A DNA stretch of 64,000 nt from Elusimicrobiota bacterium (GCA_041650695.1 JBAZKS010000008.1:6080-70079), one strand, 5' to 3'. Positions 12,227 to 31,716 are shown, counted from the stretch's first letter. The notes: generated by a model not told the origin, from the letters alone. Program-made: numbers and translations.

Positions 12227-12229
12227 GGA

Positions 12230-14303: not shown

Positions 14304-14834
14304 TCAAGTCTTGCCTCCGGAGCCACCGGGGCTGCTGGATCCTTCCTTTTCCTCGTCCTCTTCTTCCTTGTCCTCGCCCATGCGCAGGATCGCCTTCTCC
14401 CCGGACGCCTCCAGGATGACGGTCATCTGGATGGGATTCACGCGGCCTTTCACCCCGCGGATCGCATGACCCTGGTAGTCATAGAGCCGCCCGCTGCGGA
14501 AATAGTAGCCCGTGCGGCTCTCGGCGTGGTGGAGCAGCGCGTAGGACGACGCCTTGTCCTTCAGGATGCCCTTGAGCGACATCCCCTTGATGAGCGCGGC
14601 CTTGTCCGTTTCCTCGGAATTGGGATCGAACGCCTTCTCCTCGTCCGAGACCGCGACCCCCCCGCTCCCGGTCAGCGAGAGGAACGGGCTCTTGACCTTC
14701 TTGGCGTTGAAGAGGTCCTCGATCTTCGCCGGCTTCGGCGGCGTGGAAGGCTGCGCGGCGGGCGCCGCGCCGCTCTGCGCCAACGCCCGCCCCCCGACGA
14801 CGAAAAGGAACATGAGCACGAACACGGTTCTCAT
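14304..14834 (-). CDS. pilP: Pilus assembly protein PilP-like (small secreted protein in the pilMNOPQ operon)
   Basis: 176 aa with a signal peptide, at the correct operon position between pilO and pilQ. A GGAG SD lies 8 nt before the ATG. Confidence 0.55.
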   Translation of the reverse strand: MRTVFVLMFLFVVGGRALAQSGAAPAAQPSTPPKPAKIEDLFNAKKVKSPFLSLTGSGGVAVSDEEKAFDPNSEETDKAALIKGMSLKGILKDKASSYALLHHAESRTGYYFRSGRLYDYQGHAIRGVKGRVNPIQMTVILEASGEKAILRMGEDKEEEDEEKEGSSSPGGSGGKT

Positions 14835-14838
14835 CGGC

Positions 14839-15393
14839 TCACTCCAGATACTGGTACGCGACCAGTTTGAGCACCATATACATCTTCCCCTCTCCGTCCG
14901 GGGCCCCGAAATTGATGTCGCGGGCGCAGAAGAGCCGCTTCTCCAGCGCGAGCGCGGCCAGGAACTTCCCCAGGTCGTGGTACGAGGTCTGGATCTTGAG
15001 CTCGTACTTCACCTCGGCGTATCCGGCCGCCTTGGTCTCCCCCGTGTAGGAGATCCCCGAAAGCTTGATGTTGTGCTTCTTCGTCAGCGCGCTGACCGTG
15101 TCGATGACTCCGGGCAGATCCTTTTCCTTCGGCAGGGACTCGATAAGCACCTTCAGCTCCGCCTCGAGCGTCACCAGCGCCTTCTGGATCTTCTCGTAGT
15201 CGGCCTGGGCCTTCTTGGCGACCTTGATGCTCTCCTGGACCTGCGCGAACTCGGTCTTGAGCTCCGTGATCCGCTTCGAGGTGGGCATCCAGAAATACCG
15301 CACGTACGCGAAGCCGCCGCCGCCGAGGAAAAGCACGGCGAGCACCAGCGCCTGCTGCTGTTCCTTCGTCAGCTTGATGTTCATCTTCGCCAT
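14839..15393 (-). CDS. pilO: Type IV pilus assembly protein PilO
   Basis: 184 aa with a single N-terminal TM (ALVLAVLFLGGGGFAYV), a coiled coil and a PilO-like periplasmic domain. Operon position supports the call. Confidence 0.7.
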   Translation of the reverse strand: MAKMNIKLTKEQQQALVLAVLFLGGGGFAYVRYFWMPTSKRITELKTEFAQVQESIKVAKKAQADYEKIQKALVTLEAELKVLIESLPKEKDLPGVIDTVSALTKKHNIKLSGISYTGETKAAGYAEVKYELKIQTSYHDLGKFLAALALEKRLFCARDINFGAPDGEGKMYMVLKLVAYQYLE

Positions 15394-15394
15394 C

Positions 15395-15967
15395 TTACGG
15401 TGCCGCCGTGTACGTCATGTTGATCGTGAATTTGGTCGCCGTCTCGCCGATCGTCAGGATCTTGGTCTGTCCGGCGCTGAAGCGCCCGCCGCCGGTCAGC
15501 TGGACCGGTTGGGTCGAGGCGTTCACCCCCCGGAGCCATTGCGCCGCGTTTTCCGGCTTCAGGACCGCCGCGTCGGCATCCACCTGCAGCGTGGTGTTGG
15601 TCTTATTGGTCGTCTTCAGGGTCTCGAGCCACATCCCCTTGGGCATGCTCTCGCTGATATCCGTCATGAATCGGGGGTAGACCAGCCGCGAACTCAGAAG
15701 GCCCTCGATGACCTTGCGCCGCGCGACGACCTTGTCGCGCCTCGCGGTGGCCTCCGCCAGCATGCTCTTGTACTTCTCCAGCGCGGCGAGCTCCGTCTTG
15801 GCCGTGGCCACCTCGGCCTCCAGGACCACCTTGCGGTGGTGGTGCCAATAGGAGACCCCCGCGAACAAGAGGGCGGCGAAGACGCCGATCACGCCGATCT
15901 GCCCGAGGCGCTGCTTCTGCAGCTCCCGGTCCAGGATGTCCTGCGGTACCAGATTGACTCGGATCAT
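15395..15967 (-). CDS. pilN: Type IV pilus assembly protein PilN
   Basis: 190 aa. The N-terminus MIRVNLVPQD...LQKQRL is typical of PilN, followed by a single TM. ATGA overlap with pilM. Confidence 0.7.
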   Translation of the reverse strand: MIRVNLVPQDILDRELQKQRLGQIGVIGVFAALLFAGVSYWHHHRKVVLEAEVATAKTELAALEKYKSMLAEATARRDKVVARRKVIEGLLSSRLVYPRFMTDISESMPKGMWLETLKTTNKTNTTLQVDADAAVLKPENAAQWLRGVNASTQPVQLTGGGRFSAGQTKILTIGETATKFTINMTYTAAP

Positions 15968-17140
15968 TCCCAGTCCCTATTGCGCCGCAGCGCCAGCCCC
16001 ACCGCGATGCCCATGGCCGGCAGGAGTTCGGCCGGCAGGTCCGCGGGCGGATCGCCCAGGAAAGTGAAGGGATCGAGCACGGTGACCGGGACCTTGAGTT
16101 CCCCGGTCAGGAACCGGGCCAGGTTCTTCATCTTCGCGGACCCTCCCGAAAGCACGATGCGCCCGATGGACCGCTCCGGACCCTGAGAGAGGAAAAAGTC
16201 CACGGAGCGGTGCAGCTCGGCGACGAGGTCCTTGAGCACGTTCGCGACGGCCTGGGAGACCCCGAGCGCGTCCCGGTTGCCCTCCTGCAGGGCCTTCTCC
16301 TTCTCCTCGGGATCGATCATGAGGCCGTACGCCTTCTTGACCTCCTCGGCCTTGGCGTACTCGTACTGTAAAGCCTTCATCACGGCTTTGGTGAACGTGC
16401 TCCCGGAGATGAAGATGTCCCTAACGACCCGCGTGACCCCAGCCTCGATGATGGAGAGGTTCGTCACGGTATGGCCGATGTTCAGGTACAGCGCGGAGCC
16501 GACGCGCTCCTGCGGGTCGGTGGTGCCCTCGAACACGTTCTCCATCGCGAAAGAGTCGACGTCGATGATGGCGGGCTTGAGCCCCGCGGCTTCGAGGATC
16601 TCCACGCGCGTCTGGATCAGATCCTTCTTGGCCGCCACCAGCACGGTCTCCATCTTGCGCTGGCCCTCCTCCATCATCTCCGCGAGGATATGGAAGCTGA
16701 GCTGGACCTCGTTGATGTCGAACGGGATGAACGGCTCGGCCTCCGTGGAAAGCGTGGCCCGCAGTTCCTGTTTGGTCAGGAGCGGGAACTTGACGTAGCG
16801 GACGATCACGGCGTTGCCGGAGACCGCGGTCGCGGCGTTCTTGACCTGCACCCCTTTCTGGATGAGGAACGCCTTCAAGGCGTTGACCGTGGCCTGCTTG
16901 CGCTCCTCGGGAGAAGCCTCGGGAGCCGCCTCGATCGGGATATGTCCCCACATCTTGAGCTTGTTCTTGCCGCCCTCGGCCTTGATCAGGACGATCTTCA
17001 CGGCGTACGTGCCGATATCGACGCCCAGGATGTCCTTGGGGCCGCCGAAGAAAGCCCCGACCTTATCCTTCAGGCTCTTGATGTCGACGGCTTTCAGCTT
17101 TTCCTTCAGGTCCGGCATATCCCTCCGAGAACCCGCCATT
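15964..17140 (-). CDS. pilM: Type IV pilus assembly ATPase-fold protein PilM
   Basis: Actin-like ATPase fold (ILGVDIGTYAVKIVLIK ... GGSAKMKNLARFL). The track ORF begins at 17226. The start is ambiguous: 17140 (MAGSRRDMPD...) or 17118 (MPDLK, GGAGGG SD only 2 nt upstream). Confidence 0.8.
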
Positions 17141-17298
17141 AAAAAGCGCCGGCACCCGCTTTTGCGGGGCGACTCGGCGCGCACAGGTAGCTGGCCCGGG
17201 CCATCCATACGCCCAGCACAGCCCACCCAAACCTCGACACAGGTCTACGACTATGCATTTGTAACAGGATTCTACGAATTTGTCAAGGGCTTTTTTTA

Positions 17299-17304
17299 TA
17301 TAAT
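17299..17304 (+). promoter_or_regulatory. TATAAT hexamer in an AT-rich divergent intergenic region (pilM <-> inositol operon)
   Basis: tttttttatataatgctg lies about 35 nt upstream of the 17338 ATG. The only obvious -35-like TTGTCA sits at a 13-nt spacer, so this is non-ideal. Confidence 0.2.
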
Positions 17305-17337
17305 GCTGAAGATACTCCGAAGCCGATCCCCCGAATC

Positions 17338-18756
17338 ATGAGCTTTGAGAAGCTGGCCGCGCCCACGAAAGCCCTTCTGTTCGATTTCGGCGGCACTCTG
17401 GATTCCGACGGTGCGGCGTGGATCGACCGCTTTATCCCCCTCTATATGGAAGGCGGGCTGTCCGCCGAACGGGAGACCCTCTGCCGGGCGTTCTACGACT
17501 CGGATGACAACCTTCCCCGGCGCTTCGCGCTCGCCGGACTCGGCCTGGAGGAAACGGTCCGCCTGCAGGTCGGGTGCGTGGCCAAGACCCTTTCCATGGA
17601 CGAACGGGCGGCCGACCGCGTGGCGGAGGCCTTCATCTCGGACTCCCGACGGCACCTCCGCCGCAACCGCCCCCTGCTCGAACGGCTGGCCGGGCGCTTC
17701 CGTCTTGGGATCGTCTCCAATTTCTACGGCAACCTCGATTCCGTGCTCGCCTCGGAGGGCTACTCCGAACTCTTCGCCGTAGTCTCGGACTCCGAGAAAG
17801 TAGGGGCCGCGAAGCCCGAGGCGCGCATCTTCCAGCACGCCCTCTCGCGCCTGGGGGCCCGGCCCGAAGAGACCTGGATGGTCGGAGACTCCGTCAAACG
17901 CGACATGCGGGGAGCCGAGGCCCTCGGCATGCCCCACGCCTGGGTGGCTGGAACGCGCCCCGAGACGGACCGCTGCTGCGCGGATGCCCCGGTGCTCCGT
18001 TCACTGATGGATATCGAGCCCCTGCTTTTAGGGAAGACGTGGGTCACGTGTGCCGGCATCATCGCCGCCGGGGAAGGCTCGCGCCTGCGCTCCTCGCATC
18101 CTAGTCTGCCGAAGCCGCTGGTGCCGGTGCGGGGCAAGCCCCTCGCGCACTGGGTGGCCCAAGGCCTGGCTTCGGCGGGAATCCGCTCCTGCACGATGAT
18201 ACTGAACAGTTCGGGACAGGCCGTGCGCGAATCCCTCTCCGGGGCTTTCCCCGATATCGCTTGGGATTTCATCGTCCGGGATACCGGCTCGTCCTGGGAG
18301 AGTTTCCGCATCGTGGCCCAGGCTCTGGCCGCGCGCAGCGAGGCGTTCCTGATGAGCACCGTGGACGCTCTCGTCCCCCCCGAGGACATCGCGCGCTTCA
18401 GCCGGGAGGCATTCCTTCTTATAGGAAGGGATCGCCCTTGCGCGGCCCTGGGCTTGACCGGCTTCGTGGACGACGAGAAGCCCCTTTGGGCGGACATGGA
18501 TCCGGCCGGCCGGATCACCGCCCTGGGACCCATGGCTCGCCGAAAGGAGACCGTGACCTCCGGGCTCTACGCATTGACGAGGGAGGCGGCGCTCTCCATG
18601 CCGCCGGTCTCGGCCCACTCCAAGCTGCGCGAATACTGGACGGCGCTGGTCCGGAACGGACGGCCGGTCCGCGGCGTCCTCCTTTCCAAAACCGTCGACG
18701 TGGACCGGCCGGAGGATGTGGCCGTCGCCGAAAAACAGACCCGCTCCTGGAGATGA
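17338..18756 (+). CDS. Fusion protein: N-terminal HAD-like hydrolase plus C-terminal MobA-like nucleotidyltransferase (inositol-1-phosphate cytidylyltransferase-like)
   Basis: HAD motif I LLFDFGGTL and motif III/IV MVGDSVKRDMRGAEALG are in residues 1-225. Residues ~232-472 carry the NTase glycine loop CAGIIAAGEGSRLRSSHPSLPKPLVPV. Confidence 0.7.
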   Translation: MSFEKLAAPTKALLFDFGGTLDSDGAAWIDRFIPLYMEGGLSAERETLCRAFYDSDDNLPRRFALAGLGLEETVRLQVGCVAKTLSMDERAADRVAEAFISDSRRHLRRNRPLLERLAGRFRLGIVSNFYGNLDSVLASEGYSELFAVVSDSEKVGAAKPEARIFQHALSRLGARPEETWMVGDSVKRDMRGAEALGMPHAWVAGTRPETDRCCADAPVLRSLMDIEPLLLGKTWVTCAGIIAAGEGSRLRSSHPSLPKPLVPVRGKPLAHWVAQGLASAGIRSCTMILNSSGQAVRESLSGAFPDIAWDFIVRDTGSSWESFRIVAQALAARSEAFLMSTVDALVPPEDIARFSREAFLLIGRDRPCAALGLTGFVDDEKPLWADMDPAGRITALGPMARRKETVTSGLYALTREAALSMPPVSAHSKLREYWTALVRNGRPVRGVLLSKTVDVDRPEDVAVAEKQTRSWR

Positions 18757-18757
18757 T

Positions 18758-19606
18758 ATGGCTCGATGCCTTGGCGTCTTCCGTGAAGTCACGAACTCCC
18801 CGAACCGCGAGACGGACGACGCCCTGATCCTGAAGGCGGTCCTGGAGCGCCTGGGATCTTTGGGGGTCGAGACGCAGGCCGTCAATCCCGAGGAGCTCGA
18901 CTCCATGGACCTGGCCGGGTGGGACCTGATCCTGCCCATGTGCGAAGCCTATCCGCGCATCAAGCGTCTGGAGTCCCTCTCCCGGTCCACGGACGCCCTC
19001 TGGGTCAACCCTCCGTCGAGCGTCCTGAGCTGCTATCGGATACAAATGCTCGACGCCTTCCGCTCGGCTAAAGAGATCCGCTTCCCGCCGACCGAGGTCC
19101 GCAAGGTGGACGAGGGGCCGGGCGACCCGCCCGTCCCATCGGACGGCGGGTGGTGGATCAAGCGCGGGGACGTGCACAACACCTGCGACCACGACGTCGT
19201 GCGCGCGCGCCGCTGGACCGACGTCGCCGGCATCCTGCAGGATTTCGCCAAGCGCGAGATCATGCATTGGCTCGTCCAGCCCCATGTCGAGGGGGACCTC
19301 GTCAAGTTCTACGGCGTGGGCCCGGAGCATTGGTTCACCTGGTTCTATCACGACCCGGTCCGCGCGAAACGCCTTCCCTTCGACGTGGATGTCCTCGCGG
19401 GACAGGCCGCCGCGGGAGCCCGGAGATTGGCCCTCGAGGTGTTCGGCGGCGACGCGATCATCGGGCCCGACCGCGTCGTCACCCTGCTCGACGTAAACTC
19501 CTGGCCCAGTTTTGCCCTGGTCCGCGGCGAAGCCGCGGTCCAGATATCCTGGCACCTGCAAAGAAGGGTGAAAACCCTTCGCGGGGCCGCTCTCCGGAGA
19601 TCCTAA
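18758..19606 (+). CDS. ATP-grasp fold protein (possible ligase/kinase; family uncertain)
   Basis: WWIKRGDVHNTCDHDVVRA (nucleotide-binding strand), LVQPHVEGDLVKFYGVG and C-terminal GGDAIIGPDRVVTLLDVNSWPSF match the ATP-grasp topology. The start is MARCLGV at 18758, 2 nt after the upstream stop. Confidence 0.45.
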   Translation: MARCLGVFREVTNSPNRETDDALILKAVLERLGSLGVETQAVNPEELDSMDLAGWDLILPMCEAYPRIKRLESLSRSTDALWVNPPSSVLSCYRIQMLDAFRSAKEIRFPPTEVRKVDEGPGDPPVPSDGGWWIKRGDVHNTCDHDVVRARRWTDVAGILQDFAKREIMHWLVQPHVEGDLVKFYGVGPEHWFTWFYHDPVRAKRLPFDVDVLAGQAAAGARRLALEVFGGDAIIGPDRVVTLLDVNSWPSFALVRGEAAVQISWHLQRRVKTLRGAALRRS

Positions 19607-20955
19607 TGAAAAACACGCTGCAGAAGACCACTGAACCCTACACCGCCGGCCCGAAGTCCCTGGAGCTATTCGAGGAAGAGCAGCGCCACATGACGCCGGG
19701 GCTCCAGCAGATCGCGACCTTCTCCAAGATCGTCCTGGAGCGCGGGCGCGGCGCCAAATTCTGGGACGTCGATGGACGCGAATACATCGATTTCGTCGCC
19801 GGGGTCTGCGTGGCGGCCATCGGGCACGGGCATCCGGAGTACGCGCGCGCCATCTCGGAGCAGGTCTCGAAGATCTCGGTCGGCAGCTTCACGACCCGCA
19901 ACCGGGTGGAGTTCGCCAAGGCCCTGGGCGAGGTCACCCCGAAGGGGGTCGACCGGCTCCAGCTCTACTCCAGCGGCGCCGAAGCCGTCGAGGCCGCGCT
20001 GCGCCTGGCCAAGAGCCACACGAAGAAATACGAGTTCATCGCCTTCTGGGGCGGCTTCCACGGCAAGACCATGGGCGTTCTGGGCATGCTGGGCGACACC
20101 TTCAAGAAGGACCTGGGACCCCTCACGCCCGGCACCTACCTCGCGCCCTTCCCCAACCCCTACCGCTGCCCCTTCGGCACGAAGGGGGAGCACGACTGCG
20201 CGAGCCACTGCCTGGATTTCCTCCGGACCATGATCCAGCGCTCCACGACCGGCGCCCTGGCCGGCATCCTCGTCGAGCCGGTGCAGGGGACGGCCGGGAA
20301 CGTCATCCCGGCGCCGGGCTTCCTGGCGGGCTTGCGGGACATCGCCCACGAGCACGGAGCCCTGCTCATCGCGGACGAGATGATCACCGGCTTCGGCCGC
20401 ACGGGCCGGTGGTTCGGCTGCAACCACGATGACGTGATCCCGGACATCATGACTCTCGGCAAGGGCCTGGGCGGCGGCTTCCCGGTGGCGGGGCTCGTGG
20501 CCCCCGCGCACATCGCCTCGGCCAAGCCCTTCGCGAACCCCTCCGGCTCCTCCTCGAGCTACGGAGGCAACCCCCTGGCCTCGGCCGCCTGCAACGCCTC
20601 GCTCAAGATCCTCAAGAACGAGAAGCTCGTGCAGAACAGCCGCGACCTCGGCGCCCATATGCTCGAGCGCCTGTCGAAGCTCAAGGACCGGTTCCCGTTC
20701 GTGGGAGACGTCCGCGGACGGGGCCTCATGATCGGCGTGGAGCTGGTCAAAGACCGCGCCACGAAAGAGCCCATGCCCCGCGAGCACTGCCGCGTCCTCT
20801 TCGACGAGGCCCTGCGCCGGGGGCTCATCACGATGGCCTATTCGCCGGTCATCCGCATCAACCCCCCGCTGAACATCACGCGCGAGGAGGCCGACCGCGG
20901 GATGGACATCCTCGAGGAGAGCCTCGCCGCGGCGCAGGAACGCTGGAAGCTCTGA
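19606..20955 (+). CDS. Class-III (fold type I) PLP-dependent aminotransferase
   Basis: 449 aa. It carries class-III hallmarks: ...FVAGVCVAAIGHGHPEY..., LIADEMITGFGRTGRWFG..., TLGKGLGGGFPV (Schiff-base Lys region). The start MKNTLQK overlaps the previous stop (TAATG). Confidence 0.85.
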   Translation: MKNTLQKTTEPYTAGPKSLELFEEEQRHMTPGLQQIATFSKIVLERGRGAKFWDVDGREYIDFVAGVCVAAIGHGHPEYARAISEQVSKISVGSFTTRNRVEFAKALGEVTPKGVDRLQLYSSGAEAVEAALRLAKSHTKKYEFIAFWGGFHGKTMGVLGMLGDTFKKDLGPLTPGTYLAPFPNPYRCPFGTKGEHDCASHCLDFLRTMIQRSTTGALAGILVEPVQGTAGNVIPAPGFLAGLRDIAHEHGALLIADEMITGFGRTGRWFGCNHDDVIPDIMTLGKGLGGGFPVAGLVAPAHIASAKPFANPSGSSSSYGGNPLASAACNASLKILKNEKLVQNSRDLGAHMLERLSKLKDRFPFVGDVRGRGLMIGVELVKDRATKEPMPREHCRVLFDEALRRGLITMAYSPVIRINPPLNITREEADRGMDILEESLAAAQERWKL

Positions 20956-21971
20956 TGCCCAAAGGCGCGATCATCGGATTCGGAGAGGTCTGCGAGCGGG
21001 CCCACATCCCGGCTCTCAAGGCGGACCGCGACTATGAGATCGTCGCGGTCTGCGACAGCTGCATCGAGCGGCGCAGCTTGGCCGCCCGCCTCCTGCCGGC
21101 GGCCAAGCTCTTCCCGAGCGCGGAGGCGATGACCTCGCATTTCTCGAAACTCAGCTCGGTCATCGACTTCGTGGACATCGCCGCGCCGCCCCACCTGCAC
21201 GCCGAAAGCTCTCTGCTCGCGCTCAAGCACGGCCTTCATGTCCTGTGCGAAAAGCCCCTCACTCTGAGCCTGAAGGAATTCGAGACGATCCGCCGCGAGG
21301 CGTCCCGGCGGCGCCGAGTGGTTTTCCCCGTGCACAACTGGAAGCACGCGCCCCTGCTCGCCAAGCTGCGCGAGCTGCTCCGGGAGCGCGCCGTGGGCGG
21401 CGTCACCCACATCGAGTGGCACGTCCTGCGCAGTCAGCCCTCGGTCACGGCCCACGCCAAGGCGAACTGGCGCACGGACCGCAGGCTCTCCGGCGGCGGC
21501 ATACTCATGGACCACGGCTGGCACGCCCTCTACCTGCTCCAGTGGCTGGTCGGCAAGAAGCCGTTGTCGGCCCACGGGGTGCTCAAGTGCTCCGGCGATA
21601 CGGACCGGGAGGCCACCTGCCTGATCGAGTTCCCCGGGTCCACCGCCCTGATGCACCTCACCTGGAACGCCCCCGGCCGCGGGCATTGGGGGGTGGTCTA
21701 CGGGAACGAAGGCCGCGTCGAGCTGCAGGACGACCGTCTGCTGGTGTACCACAGGGCCTCCGTCCCGCACACGTACTCCTTCCAGCAGCCGCTCTCGCAC
21801 GGCTCGGCCCATCCGGAGTGGTTCCGCGGGACGCTCCTGGACTTCAAGGCGGCCCTTGCGGATCCCGCCGCGGCGACGGCGGCTCTCGACGAAGCGGGAC
21901 GCTGCATCGCCCTTATCGAAGGCCTCTACGGCCGAAGCGCAGCCTTGCGGGAGGAAGCCGCCCTACCGTGA
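20955..21971 (+). CDS. Gfo/Idh/MocA-family NAD(P)-dependent oxidoreductase (inositol/sugar dehydrogenase-like)
   Basis: Rossmann N-terminus MPKGAIIGFGEVCERAHIPAL, the EKP motif LCEKPLTL, and a C-terminal alpha/beta domain. TGATG overlap with the aminotransferase. Confidence 0.8.
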   Translation: MPKGAIIGFGEVCERAHIPALKADRDYEIVAVCDSCIERRSLAARLLPAAKLFPSAEAMTSHFSKLSSVIDFVDIAAPPHLHAESSLLALKHGLHVLCEKPLTLSLKEFETIRREASRRRRVVFPVHNWKHAPLLAKLRELLRERAVGGVTHIEWHVLRSQPSVTAHAKANWRTDRRLSGGGILMDHGWHALYLLQWLVGKKPLSAHGVLKCSGDTDREATCLIEFPGSTALMHLTWNAPGRGHWGVVYGNEGRVELQDDRLLVYHRASVPHTYSFQQPLSHGSAHPEWFRGTLLDFKAALADPAAATAALDEAGRCIALIEGLYGRSAALREEAALP

Positions 21972-23719
21972 CCCGACGCCTGAGCGCCATCGTCGCCTTC
22001 GACAGCCCGGACCTCGAAGAGCTCCGCCGCCGGGACGAGCGCGCGGCCCTGGCGTCCCTGCGGCGCCGCGACGAAGTCCTGCTCGCCGGGGTGACCGGTC
22101 ACGGGGGCTCGGTCCGGCACTCCATCGGAGACGTCTCGTTCGCGTCCTTCGAGAGCGCCGTCAGCGCGGTCGAGTGCGCGCTCTGGGTCCAGCAGCGCCT
22201 GGGGGATGAAGCCCTTCCGCTGCGGGCCTGCGTCCAGATCGGGGACCTGCTCGCCAACGACCAGACGGGCTTCTCAGCCGCCTCCCGGCTCCTTCACCTC
22301 GTTCCGACCGGGAAGTCCTGCGTCACCCGCGAGGTCCGGTCCGTCGTCGAGGGCAAGGTCCGCTGCGGCTTCAGGGACCTGGGCTCGAGCCTCCTCGAGC
22401 TTTCGGAGCCGGATGACGGAGCGCCCGCGCGCGTCGGACATGGGCCCATCCGGCTGGTCGTCCCGCCGGAGCCGCCGAAACAGAAACAACCGCCGGAAGA
22501 GCCGAAAAAGGAAGAACCGCCCAGGAAACAGATGCCCCCGCCTCCCGCGGCGGCCGGGCCGCTGCAAGCCATCCTCTGGGTGGACCATCCGAACCTGATG
22601 CTCGAGCGGGTGGGCGGGATCCCGATCATCGAGCGGCAGATCATCACCCTCTCCAAGGTCGGGTTCCGCCGGATCTGGGTCTCCACGGTCAAGCCCAAGG
22701 GGAAGGGCATCGAACAGCTGCGCATCCCCGCCGGGATCGAGCTCCACTGGGTGGAGCCGACCGGCGGCGATGACGAGGTCCGCAGCCGCATCCCCGCGTG
22801 CCAGCCGCCCTACATCACCGTTTCCGCGGATTATTTCTTCCGCCCCCGGGTCCTGGGCCAGATCCTCTCCAAGAAGCACGAGGCCCCCACCGCCTACCAG
22901 GACATCTCCGGCAAGGGCGTGATCCAGGTCGTTCCGTACCGCCAGCAAGTGGTCCAACGCCACGCCAAGCTGCCCCTCCCGGACGAGGACTATGTCCTTC
23001 TGAAGACGGATGCCGCCCGGGGACCGGCGGTGCCCTGGCTCCTGCGCGACATGGTCAAGCCCCAGGACAGCTTCATGGCCAGACATTTCGACCGGCGCAT
23101 CTCCATGGCCGTGACGCGCCGCCTCGCCGAGACCTGGGTCAGCCCGAATCACATGACGGTCTTCAGCACGGCCATCGGGCTGGCGGGGGCCTCCCTGTTC
23201 GCTTCCGGGACATACCTCCATACCGTGGCCGCGGCGCTCATCGTCTGGCTCCACACGGTCCTGGACGGCTGCGACGGGGAGCTCGCGCGCCTGCGCTTCC
23301 AATCGAGCCGCTTGGGCGGCATCCTCGACTTCTGGGGAGACAATCTGGTCCATGCCGTCCTATTCGTCTCCATGGGCGTGGGTCTCGGGCGCCCGGTCTT
23401 CATCCTCCTGGGGCTGGTGGCCGCGGCCAGCGCTTTGGCCTGCGCCGCGCTCATCTACGCGCATTCCGCGCAGCGAGCCGAACGAGAGAAGGAGGGCCCC
23501 CTGTTCCGAGGGCTCGAGGACCTGGGAAAATCCTGGGCCGCGAAGATCGAGCACATCCTGTCCCAAAGGGACTTCATCTATCTGCTCGTCCTCCTGGCCT
23601 TGACCGGGCGGACCGACGTCTTCCTCTGGGCCGCGGGCATCGGGACTCCCCTTTTCCTCATTGTTTTTCTGCTGTTGCGTCCAAAAAGCTACAATGTCGA
23701 ATCTACCGGAGGAACCTGA
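21968..23719 (+). CDS. Tri-domain protein: nucleotidyl-cyclase-like N-domain, degenerate NTP-transferase-like middle domain, C-terminal CDP-alcohol phosphatidyltransferase
   Basis: GTG start overlaps the upstream stop (GTGA). The N-terminal ~115 aa (AIVAFDSPD...GGSVRHSIGDVSFASFESAVSAVECALWVQQ) resemble the class-III cyclase fold, followed by a Pro/Lys-rich linker. The middle domain ILWVDHPNLMLERVGGIPIIERQIITL is NTase-like but lacks the GxGxR loop. The C-terminus has the exact CDP-OH_P_transf motif DGCDGELARLRFQSSRLGGILDFWGDNLVH (DGx2ARx8Gx3Dx3D) and 4-6 TM helices. Confidence 0.7.
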   Translation: MTRRLSAIVAFDSPDLEELRRRDERAALASLRRRDEVLLAGVTGHGGSVRHSIGDVSFASFESAVSAVECALWVQQRLGDEALPLRACVQIGDLLANDQTGFSAASRLLHLVPTGKSCVTREVRSVVEGKVRCGFRDLGSSLLELSEPDDGAPARVGHGPIRLVVPPEPPKQKQPPEEPKKEEPPRKQMPPPPAAAGPLQAILWVDHPNLMLERVGGIPIIERQIITLSKVGFRRIWVSTVKPKGKGIEQLRIPAGIELHWVEPTGGDDEVRSRIPACQPPYITVSADYFFRPRVLGQILSKKHEAPTAYQDISGKGVIQVVPYRQQVVQRHAKLPLPDEDYVLLKTDAARGPAVPWLLRDMVKPQDSFMARHFDRRISMAVTRRLAETWVSPNHMTVFSTAIGLAGASLFASGTYLHTVAAALIVWLHTVLDGCDGELARLRFQSSRLGGILDFWGDNLVHAVLFVSMGVGLGRPVFILLGLVAAASALACAALIYAHSAQRAEREKEGPLFRGLEDLGKSWAAKIEHILSQRDFIYLLVLLALTGRTDVFLWAAGIGTPLFLIVFLLLRPKSYNVESTGGT

Positions 23720-23721
23720 AT

Positions 23722-25116
23722 ATGAGCCCTCGCCCGTTCAAAATCGAACCCTGCCGCGGAAAACTCGGCGTCCTGCTCCCCGGCATGGGCGCCATAACCA
23801 GCACCGTCATCGCGGGCATCGAGCTCCATAAGAAGGGCCTCGGCCACCTCGCGGGCTCCGTGACGCAGCTGCAGCGCATCCGCCTGGGCAAGCGCTACGA
23901 GAACCGCCGTCCCCTCATACGGGAGTTCGTGCCCCTGCAGAAGGTCGAGGACCTGGTCTTCGGCGGCTGGGACATCTTCCCGGACGACGTGTACCGCGCC
24001 GCGCTCAAGGCGGGCGTACTGCCCGAGGAGCGTCTCCGGCCGGTGGCTCAGACCCTTTCCTCCATCCGCCCCATGCCCGGGGTCTTTGACCAGGGCTACG
24101 TGAAGAACCTCCAAGGCACGCACGTAAAGACGGGCAAGAGCAAGATGCACATGGCCGAGCAGCTCATGCGCGACATCGAGACGTTCAAGAAAGAGAACGG
24201 CCTCTCGCGCGTGGTCATGGTCTGGTGCGGCTCCACCGAGATCCTCCCCGAGCGCTCCAGGGTCCACGAGGACCTCGCATCGCTCGAGCGGGGCCTCAAG
24301 GAGAGCGACCCGGCCATCCCGCCCTCCATGATTTACGCCTATGCCGCGGTCAAAATGGGCCTCCCATACGCGAACGGGGCCCCGAACCTGTCGGGCGACG
24401 TCCCGGCCATGCTCGAACTCGCGAACGCGACCGGCTCCCCGATCATCGGCAAGGACTTCAAGACCGGCCAGACCCTGATGAAGACCATCATCTCCCCCGG
24501 GCTGCACTCGCGCATGCTGGGCTTGAACGGCTGGTACTCCACCAACATCCTCGGCAACCGGGACGGGGAAGTGCTCGCGGACCCGGGCTCCTTCAAGACC
24601 AAGGAGACGAGCAAGATGTCCGTTCTCGACACGATCCTGGAGCCGGAGCTGTATCCGGACCTCTACGGGAAAGTCGTCCATAAGGTGCGCATCGACTATT
24701 ACCCGCCGCGCGGCGACGCCAAGGAAGGGTGGGACAACATCGACATCTTCGGCTGGATGGACATGCCCATGCAGATCAAGATCAACTTCCTCTGCAGGGA
24801 CTCCATCCTCGCCGCCCCCATCGTGCTGGACCTCGCGCTCTTCATGGACCTGGCAAAGCGGTCTGGCATGCGGGGCATCCAGGAGTGGCTCTCGTTCTAC
24901 TTCAAATCCCCGCAGTGCCGCGAAGACCTCCTGCCCGAGCACAACCTGTTCATCCAGCACCTCAAGCTCAAGAACACCCTGCGCATCCTCATGGGCGAGG
25001 AGGTCCTGGACCACTCGGGCTTAGACTACTACGACCCCGAACGGGGAGTCCCGATACCGGCCCCCGCCGCGGCCTCGGAGAAGAAGAAGGCCCGCGCGAA
25101 AGCCGGAAGCCGGTAG
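23722..25116 (+). CDS. ino1: myo-Inositol-1-phosphate synthase (MIPS/Ino1, bacterial-archaeal type)
   Basis: 465 aa. The N-terminus GVLLPGMGAITSTVIAGI (Rossmann), VVMVWCGSTE, NGAPNLSGD and SPGLHSRMLGLNGWYSTNILGNRDG are conserved MIPS blocks. A GGAGGA SD lies 9 nt before the ATG. Confidence 0.85.
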   Translation: MSPRPFKIEPCRGKLGVLLPGMGAITSTVIAGIELHKKGLGHLAGSVTQLQRIRLGKRYENRRPLIREFVPLQKVEDLVFGGWDIFPDDVYRAALKAGVLPEERLRPVAQTLSSIRPMPGVFDQGYVKNLQGTHVKTGKSKMHMAEQLMRDIETFKKENGLSRVVMVWCGSTEILPERSRVHEDLASLERGLKESDPAIPPSMIYAYAAVKMGLPYANGAPNLSGDVPAMLELANATGSPIIGKDFKTGQTLMKTIISPGLHSRMLGLNGWYSTNILGNRDGEVLADPGSFKTKETSKMSVLDTILEPELYPDLYGKVVHKVRIDYYPPRGDAKEGWDNIDIFGWMDMPMQIKINFLCRDSILAAPIVLDLALFMDLAKRSGMRGIQEWLSFYFKSPQCREDLLPEHNLFIQHLKLKNTLRILMGEEVLDHSGLDYYDPERGVPIPAPAAASEKKKARAKAGSR

Positions 25117-25650
25117 ATGGCGCTGGACGACGACTTCAAAGCGGTCATCATCCGCGGCGAAGACCCGGGCGAGGAATCGCTGAGCGATAGCCTCATCCGG
25201 GAGGCGTTCGGCCGGGAGAACGAAGCCCGTCTGGTGGAAACCCTCCGCCAGAGCGCGGGATTCAACTCGAAGCTCTCGCTCGTGGCGCAGAACTGGATGG
25301 GGGTCATGGGCTACGCCCTCTTCAGCCCGGTCACGGTCCAGGCCCCGACGCCCGTCAAGGCGGCCATCCTGCATCCCGTGGCCGTGGGCCCAAAATACCG
25401 GAAGCTCGGAGCCGGAGAGCGCTTCGTGCGCCACGGCGCCCAGCGCTGCAGCGCCGTGGGGATCAACCTCATATTCACGATCTCCGCTCCCCGGTTCTTC
25501 GCGCGGCTCGGGTTCGTCCCGGCGCAAAACGCAGGCTTCATCCCAGACATCCCCCTGCCCAAGGACTCCTTCCTCGCCCTGGACCTGCTGGGCACGGCTA
25601 TCGGGAAGGTCCGTGGAAAAGTCGTTTTCCCGGAGCCTTTTAAAAAATAG
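25117..25650 (+). CDS. GNAT-family N-acetyltransferase
   Basis: 177 aa. The acetyl-CoA-binding block HPVAVGPKYRKLGAGERFVRHGAQRCSAVGINLIF fits the Q/RxxGxG/A motif. TAGATG overlap with the MIPS gene. Confidence 0.6.
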   Translation: MALDDDFKAVIIRGEDPGEESLSDSLIREAFGRENEARLVETLRQSAGFNSKLSLVAQNWMGVMGYALFSPVTVQAPTPVKAAILHPVAVGPKYRKLGAGERFVRHGAQRCSAVGINLIFTISAPRFFARLGFVPAQNAGFIPDIPLPKDSFLALDLLGTAIGKVRGKVVFPEPFKK

Positions 25651-25735: not shown

Positions 25736-28369
25736 GTGACTCCATCCGGACTGCTTGGTTTTCTGCTGTTTTTTTCGGCATTTAACGCAGAAGCCGCCGT
25801 GGACTCATCGACTCCGACAACCGGACCGGTCGTGGCTCAGGTTCAGTTCTTCGGGCTCGAGCGCATCCCCGAGGCTGAGGTGCGGTCCCGGCTGTCCGTC
25901 CGCGAATGGCAGCCCTATACCCCGGAGATGAAGTCGCAGGACATCGCGGCTCTGCTGGATTCCGGCTGGTTCGTTTCCGCGTCCATCTACGAGGTGGCTC
26001 TCTCGAGCGAAGCGATGCGGGTGGACGTCCGCCTCAAGGAAGGCCCGCCGCCCATCCCGGGGAAGGCCGCGGAACCCGCGATCGCGCCGAGGGCCCCGGC
26101 CTCTTCGGACACGCCCACCCCGCCGTGGGTCGTGGGCGAGCTCGAGGTGCGGGGGAACCGCCACGTGAAGTTCAACGTGGTGCGGACCCAGATCCAGGCC
26201 AAGAAGGGGGACCTCTACACCCGGGGAGACCTGGACCGGGACATCCAGAAGGTGTACGGCCTCGGCAACTTCGAACGGGTGACGGCCGACATCAGCGAGA
26301 TCCCGGACCGCGAGATGCCGGCGCAGTTCCTCGACGTCTGCCCGTCCTCCCATCCCGTCCGGCTCGCCTTCATCGTGGAGGAACGGCCCCTGGTGCGCAA
26401 GGTCCGGTTCGAGGGGAACAAGGAGCTTTCCCGCGGGAAGGTGCGCGACGCGACCGAAACGCGGGAGCGCGACCCGCTCGATAGGGTCAAGCTCGCCTCC
26501 GACACGGAGAAGATCCTGGAGCTATACCGGAAGAAGGGCTACCACAAGGCCCAGGCGGACACGAAGGTCGAGCTGGACACGGCCGCCGCCAAGGCGGACG
26601 TCGCCTTCCTCATCCAGGAGGGGCCGCGCGCGCTCATCGCGGAGGTCCGTCTCTCCGGCGTCTCCGCGTTCAAGCCGAAGAAGATCGCCCGCCAGATGAA
26701 GACCCGCCGCAAGAAGGTCTTCTCCGAGACGCAGCTGGAGGAGGACCTCAAGAAGGTGGAGACGTTCTACAAAGACCGCGGGCACATCGACTTCCGCATC
26801 GGATCCTCCAGCGTCTCCTACTCCGAGGACCTCAAGCGCATCACCGTCGACGTCGCCGTGTTCGAAGGGCCGCGCTACCTCTTCGGCGACACGAGCTTCA
26901 GCGGCCACACGATCTACGCCTCCACGGACTTGGCCAAGGCCGTCGAATACCACCGCGGGAAGGTCTTCAGCCAGACCCGCTTCGACTACAGCGTCCAGAA
27001 CATCCAGGAGATGTTCGCGGAGAAGGGCCGCCTGCGCGCCGTGGTCCAGCACAAGAAGACGCTCAACCCCGCCACCGGCCTGACCGACGTACACTTCGAG
27101 ATCGAAGAGGGCCCCACGGTCTACGTGGAGCACGTGGATGTGGAGGGGAACAAGCAGACCAAGGCCTACGTATTCACGCGCGAGCTCGTCATCAAGCCCG
27201 GCCAGCCGTTCGCCGTCTCCAAGGTCCGCAAGAGCCAGCAGAAGATCATGAACCTGGGCTTCATCGACGACGTGCAGCTCGACGTCCAGAGCCCCTACGA
27301 CCCGAACCTCGTGGACCTCACCTTCGGCGTCACCGAGGGCAAGCCCGGCATGCTGACCGCGGGCGCCGGCTTCTCCTCGCTCGACGGGCTCATCGGGACC
27401 CTGTCTTTGCAGCACCTCAACCTCTTCGGCCGGGCCTGGCGGACCGGGGTGCAGTGGTCCTTCGGCTCCCGCGTGAACGATTTCTCCGTGTCCTGGACCA
27501 TGCCGTGGATCCGCAGCAAGCCGGTCTCCCTCGGCTTCGACGTGTTCAACACCCGGCGCATCTCCCCCTTCGAGGGATCCAACTCCGCCTTCGTCAACAA
27601 GCGCACGGGCGGCACGGTGCGCGTGGGGCCGCGCTTCCAGGACGACAAGTACCAGCTCTCGTTCAACTACACCCTGCAGAAGATCAAGGTCACCGATATC
27701 CAGGATGAATTCCTGGACACGCTCCAGCCGAGCACGAGCATCCATTCCTCGGTCGGGGCCGAATTCGCCCGGGACACCCGGGACAACATCTGGGACGCGG
27801 CCGAGGGGAGCCGCAATTCCATCGGCGCGACCCTGGCCGGCGGGCCCTTCCTCGGAGACATCCATTTCTTCAAGCCCTACATCGCGAATCAATGGCACAA
27901 GTCACTCTTCAACATCGGGGACTACCCCCTGGTCCTGAGCCTCTTCAACCGCGCCTCGTACGTGACGCAGTTCGGGGAGACCAAGCAGGTCCCGGTCTTC
28001 GAGCGCTTCTGGGTGGGCGGTCAGGACACCCTGCGCGGCTATTCCTACGCCGGCCAGGTCGGGGCGCGCAACGGCGGCAAGGTCTACGACGTGGCCAACG
28101 TGGAGCTAGGCTTCCCGCTCGCCCGGGAACGCCGCCGCACGATCGTCAAGCTCGTGGCCTTCTACGATGTCGGCGGGTCCTGGGAGAACATGAACTCCGT
28201 GGGCTGCCGCGTGGGCCCGGGCGAGAGGGACATCAAGACGGACGTCGGGTTCGGCATCCGCTTCACGACTCCGGCGTTCCCCATCCGGCTGGACTGGGGC
28301 TACGGGCTCCAGCACCGGCCGGGGGAGAACCGGACGGAGATCAACTTCAGCATAGGACCCCTGTTCTAA
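25736..28369 (+). CDS. bamA: Outer membrane protein assembly factor BamA (Omp85)
   Basis: 877 aa (GTG start). It has a signal peptide, POTRA repeats (ELEVRGNRHVKFNVVRTQIQAKKGDLYTRGDLDRDIQKVYGLGNFERV ...) and a C-terminal beta-barrel ending ...NFSIGPLF. Confidence 0.9.
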   Translation: MTPSGLLGFLLFFSAFNAEAAVDSSTPTTGPVVAQVQFFGLERIPEAEVRSRLSVREWQPYTPEMKSQDIAALLDSGWFVSASIYEVALSSEAMRVDVRLKEGPPPIPGKAAEPAIAPRAPASSDTPTPPWVVGELEVRGNRHVKFNVVRTQIQAKKGDLYTRGDLDRDIQKVYGLGNFERVTADISEIPDREMPAQFLDVCPSSHPVRLAFIVEERPLVRKVRFEGNKELSRGKVRDATETRERDPLDRVKLASDTEKILELYRKKGYHKAQADTKVELDTAAAKADVAFLIQEGPRALIAEVRLSGVSAFKPKKIARQMKTRRKKVFSETQLEEDLKKVETFYKDRGHIDFRIGSSSVSYSEDLKRITVDVAVFEGPRYLFGDTSFSGHTIYASTDLAKAVEYHRGKVFSQTRFDYSVQNIQEMFAEKGRLRAVVQHKKTLNPATGLTDVHFEIEEGPTVYVEHVDVEGNKQTKAYVFTRELVIKPGQPFAVSKVRKSQQKIMNLGFIDDVQLDVQSPYDPNLVDLTFGVTEGKPGMLTAGAGFSSLDGLIGTLSLQHLNLFGRAWRTGVQWSFGSRVNDFSVSWTMPWIRSKPVSLGFDVFNTRRISPFEGSNSAFVNKRTGGTVRVGPRFQDDKYQLSFNYTLQKIKVTDIQDEFLDTLQPSTSIHSSVGAEFARDTRDNIWDAAEGSRNSIGATLAGGPFLGDIHFFKPYIANQWHKSLFNIGDYPLVLSLFNRASYVTQFGETKQVPVFERFWVGGQDTLRGYSYAGQVGARNGGKVYDVANVELGFPLARERRRTIVKLVAFYDVGGSWENMNSVGCRVGPGERDIKTDVGFGIRFTTPAFPIRLDWGYGLQHRPGENRTEINFSIGPLF

Positions 28370-28370
28370 C

Positions 28371-31711: not shown

Positions 31712-31716
31712 CCGCC

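Follow-up and report, generated by a model that had tools for sequence, protein, structure and literature searches.

The window analyzed here, a 64,000-nucleotide stretch from an Elusimicrobiota metagenome-assembled genome, carries an operon of seven genes (g1 to g7) which we read, at about an even chance, as a Kennedy-type pathway leading from glucose-6-phosphate to a phospholipid with an amino-inositol head group, which in this lineage would also be N-acetylated. If true, this would extend a bacterial inositol-lipid pathway, so far predicted only, with an amino-inositol head group. A literature search found no published description of this gene combination or of an amino-inositol head group, in agreement with the first-pass annotation, which had not recognized the combination as a described pathway.

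Reading of the window showed seven intact, tightly packed open reading frames on the + strand (17338-25650). The junctions from g1 to g7 are, in order, +1, -1, -1, -4, +2 and 0 nt, so that the overlaps of 0 to 4 nt originally described are nearly right (0 to -4 nt) except that two junctions are gaps of 1-2 nt. The start codons of g3 and g4 overlap the preceding stop codons, and a Shine-Dalgarno-like GGAG precedes g2, g3 and g6. All seven family assignments made at first pass were borne out, six by Pfam and that of the ATP-grasp protein (g2) by predicted structure. The features are as follows.

17227..17337, no strand: AT-rich divergent intergenic region, from pilM (minus strand) to g1, by sequence reading
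17338-18756, +: g1, 472 aa, HAD hydrolase and nucleotidyltransferase (NTase)
17368-17952, +: g1 residues 11-205, HAD-IA-type hydrolase (Pfam HAD, NCBIfam)
18058-18732, +: g1 residues 241 to ~465, MobA-like nucleotidyltransferase (Pfam NTP_transf_3 at 241-358, NCBIfam)
18758-19606, +: g2, 282 aa, ATP-grasp protein
19606-20955, +: g3, 449 aa, class-III aminotransferase
20955-21971, +: g4, 338 aa, Gfo/Idh/MocA oxidoreductase
21968-23719, +: g5, 583 aa, GTG start, same length as NCBI model P0408, CDP-alcohol phosphotransferase
21968..22417, +: g5 residues 1 to ~150, N-terminal class-III cyclase homology domain, lineage-specific
22424..22549, +: g5 residues 153-194, Pro/Lys/Glu-rich linker, predicted disordered (pLDDT < 50)
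22562..23050, +: g5 residues ~199-361, middle domain with nucleotidyltransferase fold
23063..23719, +: g5 residues ~366-583, C-terminal membrane CDP-alcohol phosphotransferase domain (PF01066)
23722-25116, +: g6, 464 aa, myo-inositol-1-phosphate synthase (MIPS)
25117-25650, +: g7, 177 aa, GNAT

The operon promoter is presumed, by position only, to lie in 17227..17337; a scan of this region for consensus sigma-70 sites found none and an Rfam search gave no match. In Elusimicrobiota the operon lies directly upstream of bamA-skp-lpxD-lpxC-fabZ-lpxA-lpxI. A second Gfo gene is located within these adjoining lipid A genes. The window's only gene for an LPG_synthase_TM (MprF flippase-like) domain is about 10 kb off, in another gene cluster.

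Gene neighborhoods were counted in the 44 Elusimicrobiota genomes with enough flanking sequence. Downstream of the ATP-grasp gene, the aminotransferase and the oxidoreductase are both present in 44/44, the phosphotransferase in 41/44 and MIPS in 38/44, MIPS being absent from the cluster in 6/44 loci. The conserved order in Elusimicrobiota is HAD, NTase, ATP-grasp, aminotransferase, oxidoreductase, CDP-alcohol phosphotransferase and MIPS. It recurs in ~80 Elusimicrobiota species genomes and also in other lineages, and the same gene set is found in unrelated genomic contexts of other lineages (L087, L088 and L082) and in 39 metagenome loci. This arrangement is far beyond chance, and the gene-neighborhood comparison shows the combination to be a phylum-wide conserved cluster and not peculiar to the window. 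The L082 protein cluster includes Thermoanaerobaculia members. Two classes can be distinguished: class A, marked by the aminotransferase and oxidoreductase, from Elusimicrobiota, Thermoanaerobaculia and soil metagenomes; and class B, from gut Bacteroidales, which keeps NTase, ATP-grasp, CDP-alcohol phosphotransferase, HAD and MIPS without aminotransferase and oxidoreductase. Of the 72 classified metagenome loci, 18 contain an LPG_synthase_TM gene, as do L082, L083 and L087; class A clusters are often linked to such a gene. The habitats of cluster carriers are groundwater, soil, sludge and gut.

An "alternative" inositol-lipid cluster has been predicted in Bacteroides vulgatus and Prevotella (Heaver et al. 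2022; PMC9246714). It includes MIPS, an NTP transferase, a CDP-alcohol phosphatidyltransferase and a HAD hydrolase and has been linked to inositol-lipid production where the PIP-synthase route is missing; the proposed logic, biochemically unconfirmed, is that Ins-P and CTP yield CDP-inositol, followed by transfer to a lipid (PMC9246714). According to Pfam, these four components are all present in g1, g5 and g6, and the class B cluster is a match to the published one. Homology was assessed with the proteins of a Muribaculaceae cluster of this type (L086) in place of the B. vulgatus reference genes: tblastn against the window gave E values of 8e-31 for the NTase, 7e-33 for the ATP-grasp protein, 7.5e-10 for the CDP-alcohol transferase, 1e-27 for HAD and 1e-143 for MIPS, with identities of 35% (NTase), 33% (HAD), 51% (MIPS) and, over the catalytic core, 35% (CDP-alcohol transferase). 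The resemblance to the alternative CDP-inositol lipid route suggested at first pass thus extends to five homologous components. An LPG-synthase-TM/BT_1521-like gene is often found near the published cluster, as in the metagenome loci here, whereas its description names no ATP-grasp protein ("ATP-grasp" occurs 0 times), which here is core in both classes (PMC9246714). Compared to that cluster, the window adds, inside the operon, an aminotransferase and a Gfo/Idh/MocA gene, together with the GNAT and the cyclase-like domain.

In the pathway as we infer it, including its substrates, the order of its steps, its lipid acceptor and the choice of a kinase over a ligase for g2, MIPS (g6) would supply inositol-3-phosphate, g4 would oxidize inositol or an inositol phosphate at one of the ring hydroxyls and g3 would aminate the ketone to an inosamine. 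The NTase of g1 would use CTP to convert the cyclitol phosphate into a CDP-cyclitol, from which g5 would move the phospho-cyclitol onto an acceptor hydroxyl, that of diacylglycerol or another membrane lipid being the most likely. This would give an amino-inositol phospholipid, N-acetylated in this lineage on its amine by g7. Our preferred reading of g2 and the HAD domain is a kinase/phosphatase pair that would set the phosphate-bearing ring position. In one route, Ins3P would be converted to Ins(1,3)P2 and then to a CDP-Ins-3P-type donor, giving a PIP-like product which is then dephosphorylated; in the other, Ins3P would be dephosphorylated and the free cyclitol re-phosphorylated. The linkage to an MprF-like flippase domain and the bamA-lpx neighborhood hint at a lipid product. 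Among NCBIfam models, no operon enzyme reaches an equivalog-level score for any characterized function.

The profile-HMM check proposed at first pass upheld both MIPS and the CDP-alcohol phosphotransferase. The g6 protein carries both MIPS Pfam domains (PF07994, E = 7e-92; PF01658, E = 2e-31), is 61-77% identical among Elusimicrobiota loci and by this assignment converts glucose-6-phosphate to L-myo-inositol-1-phosphate (= D-Ins3P). In g1, the nucleotide loop of the NTase, AAGEGSRL, is intact. In the middle domain of g5, which resembles the cytosolic domain of IPCT/DIPPS and of AF2299, LWVDHPNL is found where the GxGxR loop is expected; this replacement is kept across the family and the domain is probably non-catalytic. 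Since the loop is missing there, the g1 domain is most likely the functional cytidylyltransferase making CDP-cyclitol. The role of the other g1 domain as a "phosphatase" is uncertain, because its HAD motif I (FDFGGTL) has Gly in place of Asp+2 and its nearest relatives are uncharacterized or dehalogenase-like. Motifs II-IV are present, and 75/79 homologues are likewise without the general acid/base Asp+2 in motif I. In most relatives, HAD and NTase are two separate genes.

A Pfam search with g2, whose family has no Pfam model, gave no hit; its predicted structure has an ATP-grasp fold. It had been assigned to an amine-acylating branch, but it is present in class B clusters, which have no aminotransferase, and for this reason it is to be considered part of the CDP-inositol core and no part of the amination/acylation branch. 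Throughout the versions of the cluster, ATP-grasp and HAD are core partners of NTase and transferase, and in relatives the ATP-grasp domain is repeatedly fused to NTase, HAD or CDP-alcohol transferase. The g2 protein could be either a kinase of the ITPK type or a ligase. Hints of a kinase are the recurrent NTase::ATP-grasp fusions, a pairing typical of kinases with nucleotidyltransferases, the profile matches to ITPK4 and ITPK1, with which g2 has the ATP-grasp fold in common, a metal motif that reads DxN..PSF like that of ITPK4, and the phosphorylation of the MIPS product Ins3P by ITPK1 (PMC6900528). A search for PF05770 (Ins134_P3_kin), a match that distinguishes these ITPKs from g2, gave no hit for g2 itself (gathering score not reached), while 11/30 relatives match it weakly (best E = 2.5e-4). 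ITPKs have been described from eukaryotes and Asgard archaea, not bacteria.

By fold and by broad profile, ligases match g2 as well as or better than ITPKs. It could be a carboxylate-activating ligase that joins an acid, such as an amino acid, in ester or amide linkage to the cyclitol head group or a precursor of it; this would be the acylation proposed at first pass, widened to esters for clusters without the amine. The result would be an inositol lipid of the aminoacyl type, with the MprF-like flippase as its exporter. We regard this as rather unlikely, though worth keeping in view: the family is equally conserved in class B, where no amine can form, its metal motif is the DxN of ITPK alignments and not the ExN of the PsnB alignment, fusion to the NTase suits a step preceding nucleotide activation, and the cluster has no gene supplying an amino acid.

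The transferase domain of g5 is recognized by PF01066 (CDP-OH_P_transf, residues 390-531) and its catalytic motif, D433-G-x2-D436-G-x2-A-R...G450-x3-D454-x3-D458, is intact and invariant across the family. The best NCBIfam match of g5 is NF041135 (70.8 bits against a cut-off of 580) and the best fold match is 4mnd (IPCT/DIPPS; sequence E = 1.7e-9); among solved structures, the transferase domain is nearest in sequence to AF2299 (4o6m, E = 3.5e-25), a CDP-alcohol phosphotransferase of the archaeon Archaeoglobus fulgidus which, like g5, has an N-terminal cytosolic domain. The PDB entry of AF2299 names no function or substrate, and the match therefore adds no functional information. These three best matches support the proposed relationship of the MIPS, NTase and CDP-alcohol phosphotransferase core to IPCT/DIPPS, the bifunctional CTP:inositol-1-phosphate cytidylyltransferase/di-myo-inositol-phosphate-phosphate synthase of hyperthermophiles, which works with MIPS and a phosphatase. 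The operon resembles that system in encoding MIPS alongside (g6) and in the CDP-alcohol phosphotransferase motif and fold of g5. It differs in that the fused cytidylyltransferase of IPCT/DIPPS is competent whereas its g5 counterpart lacks GxGxR, the competent loop being on g1 instead; the score falls short of the NF041135 equivalog, the hosts are mesophiles, and aminotransferase, oxidoreductase, ATP-grasp and GNAT genes are added.

Membrane embedding is no proof of a lipid product, since the acceptor used by DIPPS, to which g5 is structurally closest, is a soluble one. The product could be a soluble phosphodiester related to di-myo-inositol phosphate (DIP) but aminated and, in this lineage, N-acetylated. 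It would be made just as by IPCT/DIPPS: the phosphate of inositol or of inosamine would serve as acceptor, and HAD would act last, as a phosphatase of the DIPP type. DIP, however, is a solute of (hyper)thermophiles, whereas this cluster is carried by organisms of groundwater, soil, sludge and gut; together with the low NF041135 score and the frequent linkage of the cluster to an MprF-like flippase-domain gene, this makes a soluble product improbable. The homologous class B cluster, moreover, occurs in Bacteroidetes that make inositol lipids (PMC9246714).

The g3 protein is a PLP aminotransferase of class III (GABA/acetylornithine-type; PF00202 Aminotran_3, E = 6e-107) with the PLP lysine motif TLGKGLGGG. 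It is below the cut-off of every NCBIfam equivalog aminotransferase model, and the solved structures nearest to it are archaeal GABA-AT-like enzymes and racemases. The g4 protein is a Gfo/Idh/MocA NAD(P) oxidoreductase, with N- and C-terminal GFO_IDH_MocA Pfam domains and the EKP and D-x3-H motifs. Its NCBIfam matches (levoglucosan dehydrogenase, IolG and UDP-GlcNAc 3-dehydrogenase) are weak and far below cut-off, that to the IolG model TIGR04380 (58.8 bits against a cut-off of 355) indicating the superfamily level only, and its PDB neighbors are secondary-alcohol dehydrogenases of sugars and cyclitols. The g4 protein is presumed to be a cyclitol (or cyclitol-phosphate) dehydrogenase giving a keto intermediate and g3 the aminotransferase of that keto-cyclitol. 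Known inosose aminotransferases are of the DegT/StsC type and not class III. The operon thus departs from scyllo-inosamine formation, which uses a DegT/DnrJ/EryC1/StsC aminotransferase, where g3 belongs to PF00202 class III, and an IolG-type inositol 2-dehydrogenase, from which g4 is distant. Other oxidize-then-aminate pairs are WbpB/WbpE, GnnA/GnnB and the inositol dehydrogenase and inosose aminotransferase of aminocyclitol and rhizopine pathways; a precedent with a sugar phosphate as substrate is kanosamine formation, in which the Gfo-family dehydrogenase NtdC and the aminotransferase NtdA act together with NtdB, a phosphatase of the HAD type. As proposed here, such pairs join a Gfo/Idh/MocA dehydrogenase to a PLP aminotransferase, the site of reaction being a secondary alcohol of a ring. 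The aminotransferases of the Ntd, Wbp, Gnn, aminocyclitol and rhizopine pathways are of the DegT/DnrJ/StsC type, and none of these pathways is known to feed a CDP-alcohol phosphotransferase. The oxidize-then-aminate branch proposed at first pass is plausible and is strengthened by the co-occurrence of both genes in the operon in all 44 loci.

That g3 and g4 leave the inositol ring alone, and instead make or modify some other metabolite or the acceptor (for example an amino-alcohol backbone, or an amino sugar destined for the LPS genes next door), or that g4 only epimerizes inositol, the product being an ordinary inositol phospholipid like the one proposed for Bacteroidetes, would fit the closeness of g3 to GABA/ornithine-type omega-transaminases and to no known inosose aminotransferase, the equal closeness of g4 to sugar 3-dehydrogenases and the adjoining lipid A genes with their own Gfo gene, but is very improbable given that both genes lie mid-operon between the ATP-grasp and CDP-alcohol transferase genes in every locus counted, with overlapping stop and start codons, that they travel with the module into unrelated genomic contexts in other lineages and that no further gene of the cluster could supply a polyol as substrate.

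The mycothiol-like chemistry that had also been suggested was not borne out: the operon has no glycosyltransferase, deacetylase or Cys ligase, Pfam and NCBIfam searches revealed in it none of the MshA, MshB and MshC families that go with MIPS and the GNAT MshD in the mycothiol pathway, and the mycothiol-type INO1 model reaches 29 bits against a cut-off of 638. The family of g7 was upheld (28 bits for PF00583 Acetyltransf_1, where the cut-off is 20.7), and the CoA motif R-x-x-G-x-G is present (RKLGAG). As a member of the pathway, however, the GNAT is a lineage-specific accessory, found in 8/44 Elusimicrobiota loci and always between the cluster and bamA; in this sub-lineage it is presumed to N-acetylate the amino-cyclitol.

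The seven genes described by the first-pass annotation are confirmed as seven intact, tightly spaced open reading frames on the + strand (17338-25650), with junctions from g1 to g7 of +1, -1, -1, -4, +2 and 0 nt in the sequence as read. Pfam HMM searches bore out the families that had been proposed for six of them (g1 and g3-g7).

Genes of the operon (17338-25650, + strand), with Pfam assignments
g1: HAD hydrolase (residues 11-205) fused to a MobA-like NTP transferase (NTase; residues 241-358)
g2: ATP-grasp protein, without a Pfam model
g3: class-III aminotransferase (E = 6e-107)
g4: Gfo/Idh/MocA oxidoreductase
g5: CDP-alcohol phosphotransferase domain (residues 390-531)
g6: myo-inositol-1-phosphate synthase, MIPS (E = 7e-92)
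g7: GNAT

Catalytic signatures include the PLP lysine of g3, the EKP and D-x3-H motifs of g4 and RKLGAG in g7. None of the operon proteins reaches an NCBIfam equivalog cut-off; their families are secure, their specific functions are not. The three-domain architecture of g5 is resolved in a structure model (pLDDT 83), in which an N-terminal class-III cyclase homology domain (21968-22417) is followed by a disordered Pro/Lys-rich linker. The NTase-fold domain of g5 lacks the GxGxR loop, the canonical loop (AAGEGSRL) being found on g1 instead. The transferase domain retains an intact catalytic motif and is closest by sequence to AF2299 (E = 3.5e-25), with IPCT/DIPPS next. A protein identical to g5 has been recorded from an Elusimicrobiota MAG under the name CDP-alcohol phosphatidyltransferase family protein. 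The gene of a small cNMP-binding protein (36995-37441), adjoined by a RelA/SpoT gene (34903-36987), lies about 13 kb downstream of g5; to connect this protein with the cyclase homology domain is speculation.

The operon is preceded by a 111-nt AT-rich spacer, beyond which lies a divergent pilMNOPQ cluster, and is followed by an 85-nt spacer and an envelope supercluster.

Features directly downstream of the operon
25736-34427: envelope supercluster comprising bamA, skp, lpxD, lpxC, fabZ, lpxA, lpxI and then a second Gfo/Idh/MocA gene
33369-34427: the second Gfo/Idh/MocA oxidoreductase, with no more than 28% identity to g4 across 140 residues

In a promoter and terminator scan, g1 had no promoter ahead of it, a single promoter-like site fell within the 85-nt spacer and terminator-like matches stayed at background level. 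Rfam and tRNA scans of the whole window gave no match, and the G+C content stays at about 63-69% all along, without a break in composition.

Close relatives of g2 all come from Elusimicrobiota MAGs. A scan for the g2 family in one genome per GTDB species gave 163 matching stretches, from which 80 loci were kept, nearly all labelled Elusimicrobiota. In almost all of these the order is pilM (on the opposite strand), HAD, NTase, ATP-grasp, aminotransferase, Gfo, CDP-alcohol transferase, MIPS and bamA-skp. Downstream genes were counted in the 44 loci with at least 6.5 kb beyond g2.

Genes downstream of g2 in 44 loci
Aminotransferase: 44/44
Gfo oxidoreductase: 44/44
CDP-alcohol transferase: 41/44
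MIPS: 38/44
bamA, next to which the operon keeps its position: 37/44
GNAT: 8/44

HAD and NTase lie upstream of g2 in 60 of 61 loci, mostly as two often overlapping genes, their fusion being found only in the sub-lineage of the window and a few others. The g5 cyclase-like domain is similarly confined to a few close relatives. These counts define a conserved unit of HAD, NTase, ATP-grasp, aminotransferase, Gfo, transferase and MIPS; the GNAT and the cyclase domain have been added to it locally. MIPS is absent from the cluster in several close relatives (loci L002, L004, L010, L015 and L079), where inositol phosphate must be supplied from elsewhere in the genome; the GNAT is kept in all of these except L010. 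At L004, the place of MIPS (14342-16805) is occupied by a 177-aa and a 645-aa ORF, both unrelated to it, which, judged by eye, resemble an ECF-type sigma factor and a von Willebrand-A-like protein.

An exhaustive profile search places about 1,100 clusters at 50% identity in the g2 family. Its members include several NTase::ATP-grasp fusions together with HAD::NTase::ATP-grasp, ATP-grasp::CDP-alcohol transferase and ATP-grasp::HAD forms. A profile built from distant members retrieves thousands of proteins, with top scores in gut Bacteroidales, especially Muribaculaceae, where the ATP-grasp gene occurs with NTase, CDP-alcohol transferase, HAD and MIPS genes; the window has homologues of all five Muribaculaceae cluster proteins. 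A metagenome scan added 80 further loci, among which we distinguish clusters with both aminotransferase and Gfo (class A) and clusters without either (class B).

Gene orders in the two classes (AG, ATP-grasp; AT, aminotransferase; GFO, oxidoreductase; CDP, CDP-alcohol transferase; NT, NTase; LPGTM, LPG_synthase_TM; brackets, optional)
Class A, 39 loci: [LPG_synthase_TM]-HAD-NT-AG-AT-GFO-CDP-MIPS or AG-AT-CDP-GFO-LPGTM-HAD-MIPS; LPG_synthase_TM in 13
Class B, 33 loci: NT-AG-CDP-[LPG_synthase_TM]-HAD-MIPS; LPG_synthase_TM in 5

Class A also occurs in contexts unlike that of Elusimicrobiota, as at L087, where the cluster includes the flippase-like gene and adjoins dxs/ispH and an efflux system, and at L088. 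Another example is the fusion protein of L082, whose 90% cluster includes Thermoanaerobaculia proteins. The soil contig L091 carries a full class A cluster (6251-13743, + strand) and a second, partial set of ATP-grasp, HAD and LPG_synthase_TM genes (1-1118, minus strand), which suggests paralogous modules within one genome. A minimal variant is found at L083, a 7.8-kb contig on which LPG_synthase_TM and HAD genes precede a 700-aa ATP-grasp::CDP-alcohol phosphotransferase fusion (3902-6004), and on which NTase, MIPS, aminotransferase and Gfo genes are all absent.

Class B matches what Heaver et al. 2022 (PMC9246714) call the "alternative" inositol-lipid cluster, made up by definition of an NTP transferase, a CDP-alcohol phosphatidyltransferase, a HAD hydrolase and MIPS. 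As proposed there, the cluster would make CDP-inositol, from which inositol lipids would follow, in Bacteroides vulgatus and Prevotella species without the PIP-synthase route; the authors describe it as functionally unconfirmed (PMC9246714). The text of that paper makes no mention of an ATP-grasp protein; its locus tags RS13095, RS13105 and RS13115 leave two unnamed genes between named ones, a spacing that would fit the order NT-AG-CDP-LPGTM-HAD of class B loci. The window locus is probably an inositol-derived phosphodiester or head-group pathway homologous to this Bacteroidales cluster. It is best seen as a predicted CDP-inositol head-group pathway in a derived form that aminates, and whose core ATP-grasp enzyme had been overlooked. 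The first-pass annotation had not recognised the combination as a described pathway and, within the incomplete coverage of the literature searched, we likewise came upon no published account of a cluster in which MIPS and a CDP-alcohol transferase are accompanied by an aminotransferase, a Gfo oxidoreductase or an ATP-grasp. Within the same coverage, searches for CDP-inositol or inosamine lipids gave no description of the cluster, and we found neither a report on inositol metabolism in Elusimicrobia nor a follow-up confirming the alternative pathway of Bacteroidetes.

The locus is real and widely conserved; we infer every chemical step. The presence of MIPS, a P-loop NTase and an IPCT/DIPPS-like transferase indicates a putative CDP-cyclitol donor; CDP-diacylglycerol is a less likely donor, given the dedicated NTase. 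The aminotransferase and Gfo pair is the distinguishing mark of class A: the two are always together, inside the operon, and move with it between phyla. Inositol is the sole polyol made by the cluster, and the most economical reading is that a ring hydroxyl would be oxidised by Gfo and then transaminated to give an inosamine. Candidates for the oxidised intermediate are free inositol, Ins-P, CDP-inositol and the finished head group. As precedents, Gfo-type dehydrogenases and aminotransferases, in part with a HAD phosphatase, act on sugar phosphates or nucleotide sugars in the NtdCAB, WbpB/E and GnnA/B systems. In the sub-lineage of the window the GNAT would N-acetylate the amine. The mycothiol-like chemistry raised earlier did not hold up, glycosyltransferase, deacetylase and Cys ligase all being absent in Pfam and NCBIfam searches; with a DegT-type aminotransferase also absent, both mycothiol-like and aminoglycoside-like pathways are ruled out.

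The ATP-grasp had been placed in an oxidise-aminate-acylate branch, a placement which fails because ATP-grasp and HAD belong to the core in both classes. Acylation of the new amine as its primary role is ruled out, since clusters that lack an aminotransferase conserve the family to the same degree. We regard g2 as plausibly, if not quite probably, a kinase. Several observations count for this: the only PDB match of the Elusimicrobiota g2 profile below 1e-3 is ITPK4, PF05770 is weakly matched by 11 of 30 family members, and the invariant GGD...DxN.WPSF of g2 aligns with fGfD...DlN.lPSF of ITPK4 and DiN.fPgY of ITPK1. Kinase-NTase fusion is, in addition, a common means of activating an alcohol. 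Ins3P, the MIPS product, is phosphorylated by ITPK1 (PMC6900528), which also counts for a kinase. PsnB, a ligase, has E-L-N where the g2 family has DxN. Among the invariant residues of g2 are R9, R17, R94, K135, R136, H140, R166, H176, K183 and R256. A ligase seems less likely; for it counts that the best match of the broad g2-family profile is PsnB (E = 4.8e-8). As a kinase, g2 could form with the HAD a kinase/phosphatase pair that would move the phosphate from D-3, the MIPS position, to the future phosphodiester position; alternatively, the pair might attach a second phosphate and take it off again at a later stage, as happens in the PIP route. Such a pair would explain why a CDP-inositol route should need two extra enzymes.

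The HAD domain of g1 (nt 17368-17952) retains the nucleophile Asp and motifs II-IV. Its motif I reads FD(F/Y)GGTL in 75 of 79 homologues (the window and L002-L088), so that Gly stands in for the Asp+2 general acid/base usual in HAD phosphatases, a feature shared with the dehalogenase/REG-2-like subgroup. This domain may not be a conventional phosphatase, and the absence of Asp+2 cautions against naming it a simple one.

Whether the product is an amino-cyclitol carried on a lipid we consider evenly balanced. A soluble product would agree with the closest structure, DIPPS, which works on soluble substrates. A lipid is favoured over a solute, though not proven, because a gene with an MprF-type flippase domain recurs inside both classes, class B is tied to inositol-lipid producers, the carriers live in mesophilic habitats and the Elusimicrobiota operon lies directly upstream of the bamA-lpx envelope genes. 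A tblastn search of the window with the L087 protein did not find LPG_synthase_TM; a Pfam search revealed a divergent gene about 10 kb upstream of the operon, in a different cluster.

Minus-strand cluster upstream of the operon
5463-6485, minus: SAM methyltransferase
6482-7480, minus: LPG_synthase_TM flippase-like protein, the only such gene in the window (Pfam E = 2e-36)
7477-9297, minus: YfhO-like membrane protein
9294-11741, minus: 814-aa protein with no Pfam match

LPG_synthase_TM lies inside the inositol cluster in other lineages but in a separate cluster here, where the AT skew is unusually strong (0.22-0.33).

Inositol lipids count as a rarity among bacteria, and their synthesis by the CDP-inositol route has so far only been predicted from genomes. 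The ATP-grasp is the fifth core enzyme of this predicted module and had gone unrecognised; a large set of uncultured bacteria carries a derived module with oxidoreductase and aminotransferase inserted, which is among the most stably conserved operons beside Elusimicrobiota envelope-biogenesis genes. We tentatively propose, as one joint and rather doubtful proposition, that membrane lipids of a class not known before are made by most Elusimicrobiota, some Acidobacteriota (e.g. Thermoanaerobaculia) and further uncultured lineages of soil and sediment. The head group of these lipids would be phospho-inosamine (amino-inositol), with the zwitterionic character of phosphatidylethanolamine and, in certain lineages, an N-acetyl group. 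Their synthesis would follow a CDP-cyclitol route with a bacterial ITPK-like ATP-grasp inositol(-phosphate) kinase as one core enzyme and, as part of the same proposition, this kinase would be an overlooked, essential step in the inositol-lipid pathway of abundant gut Bacteroidales. If this holds, phospholipids would gain a head group whose charge properties set it apart, lipidomics of groundwater and soil would have a specific mass signature to search for, four "hypothetical" or generic gene families would receive a function, and ITPK-type inositol kinases, known to date from eukaryotes and Asgard archaea, would be placed in bacteria as well.

Further downstream, the window carries on the minus strand a gene for a 1242-aa fusion of CheB methylesterase, CheR methyltransferase, PAS and histidine-kinase domains (39471-43202). 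A B12-binding radical SAM gene (43940-45532) has a similar counterpart near the L087 class A cluster, a recurrence that is probably coincidental.
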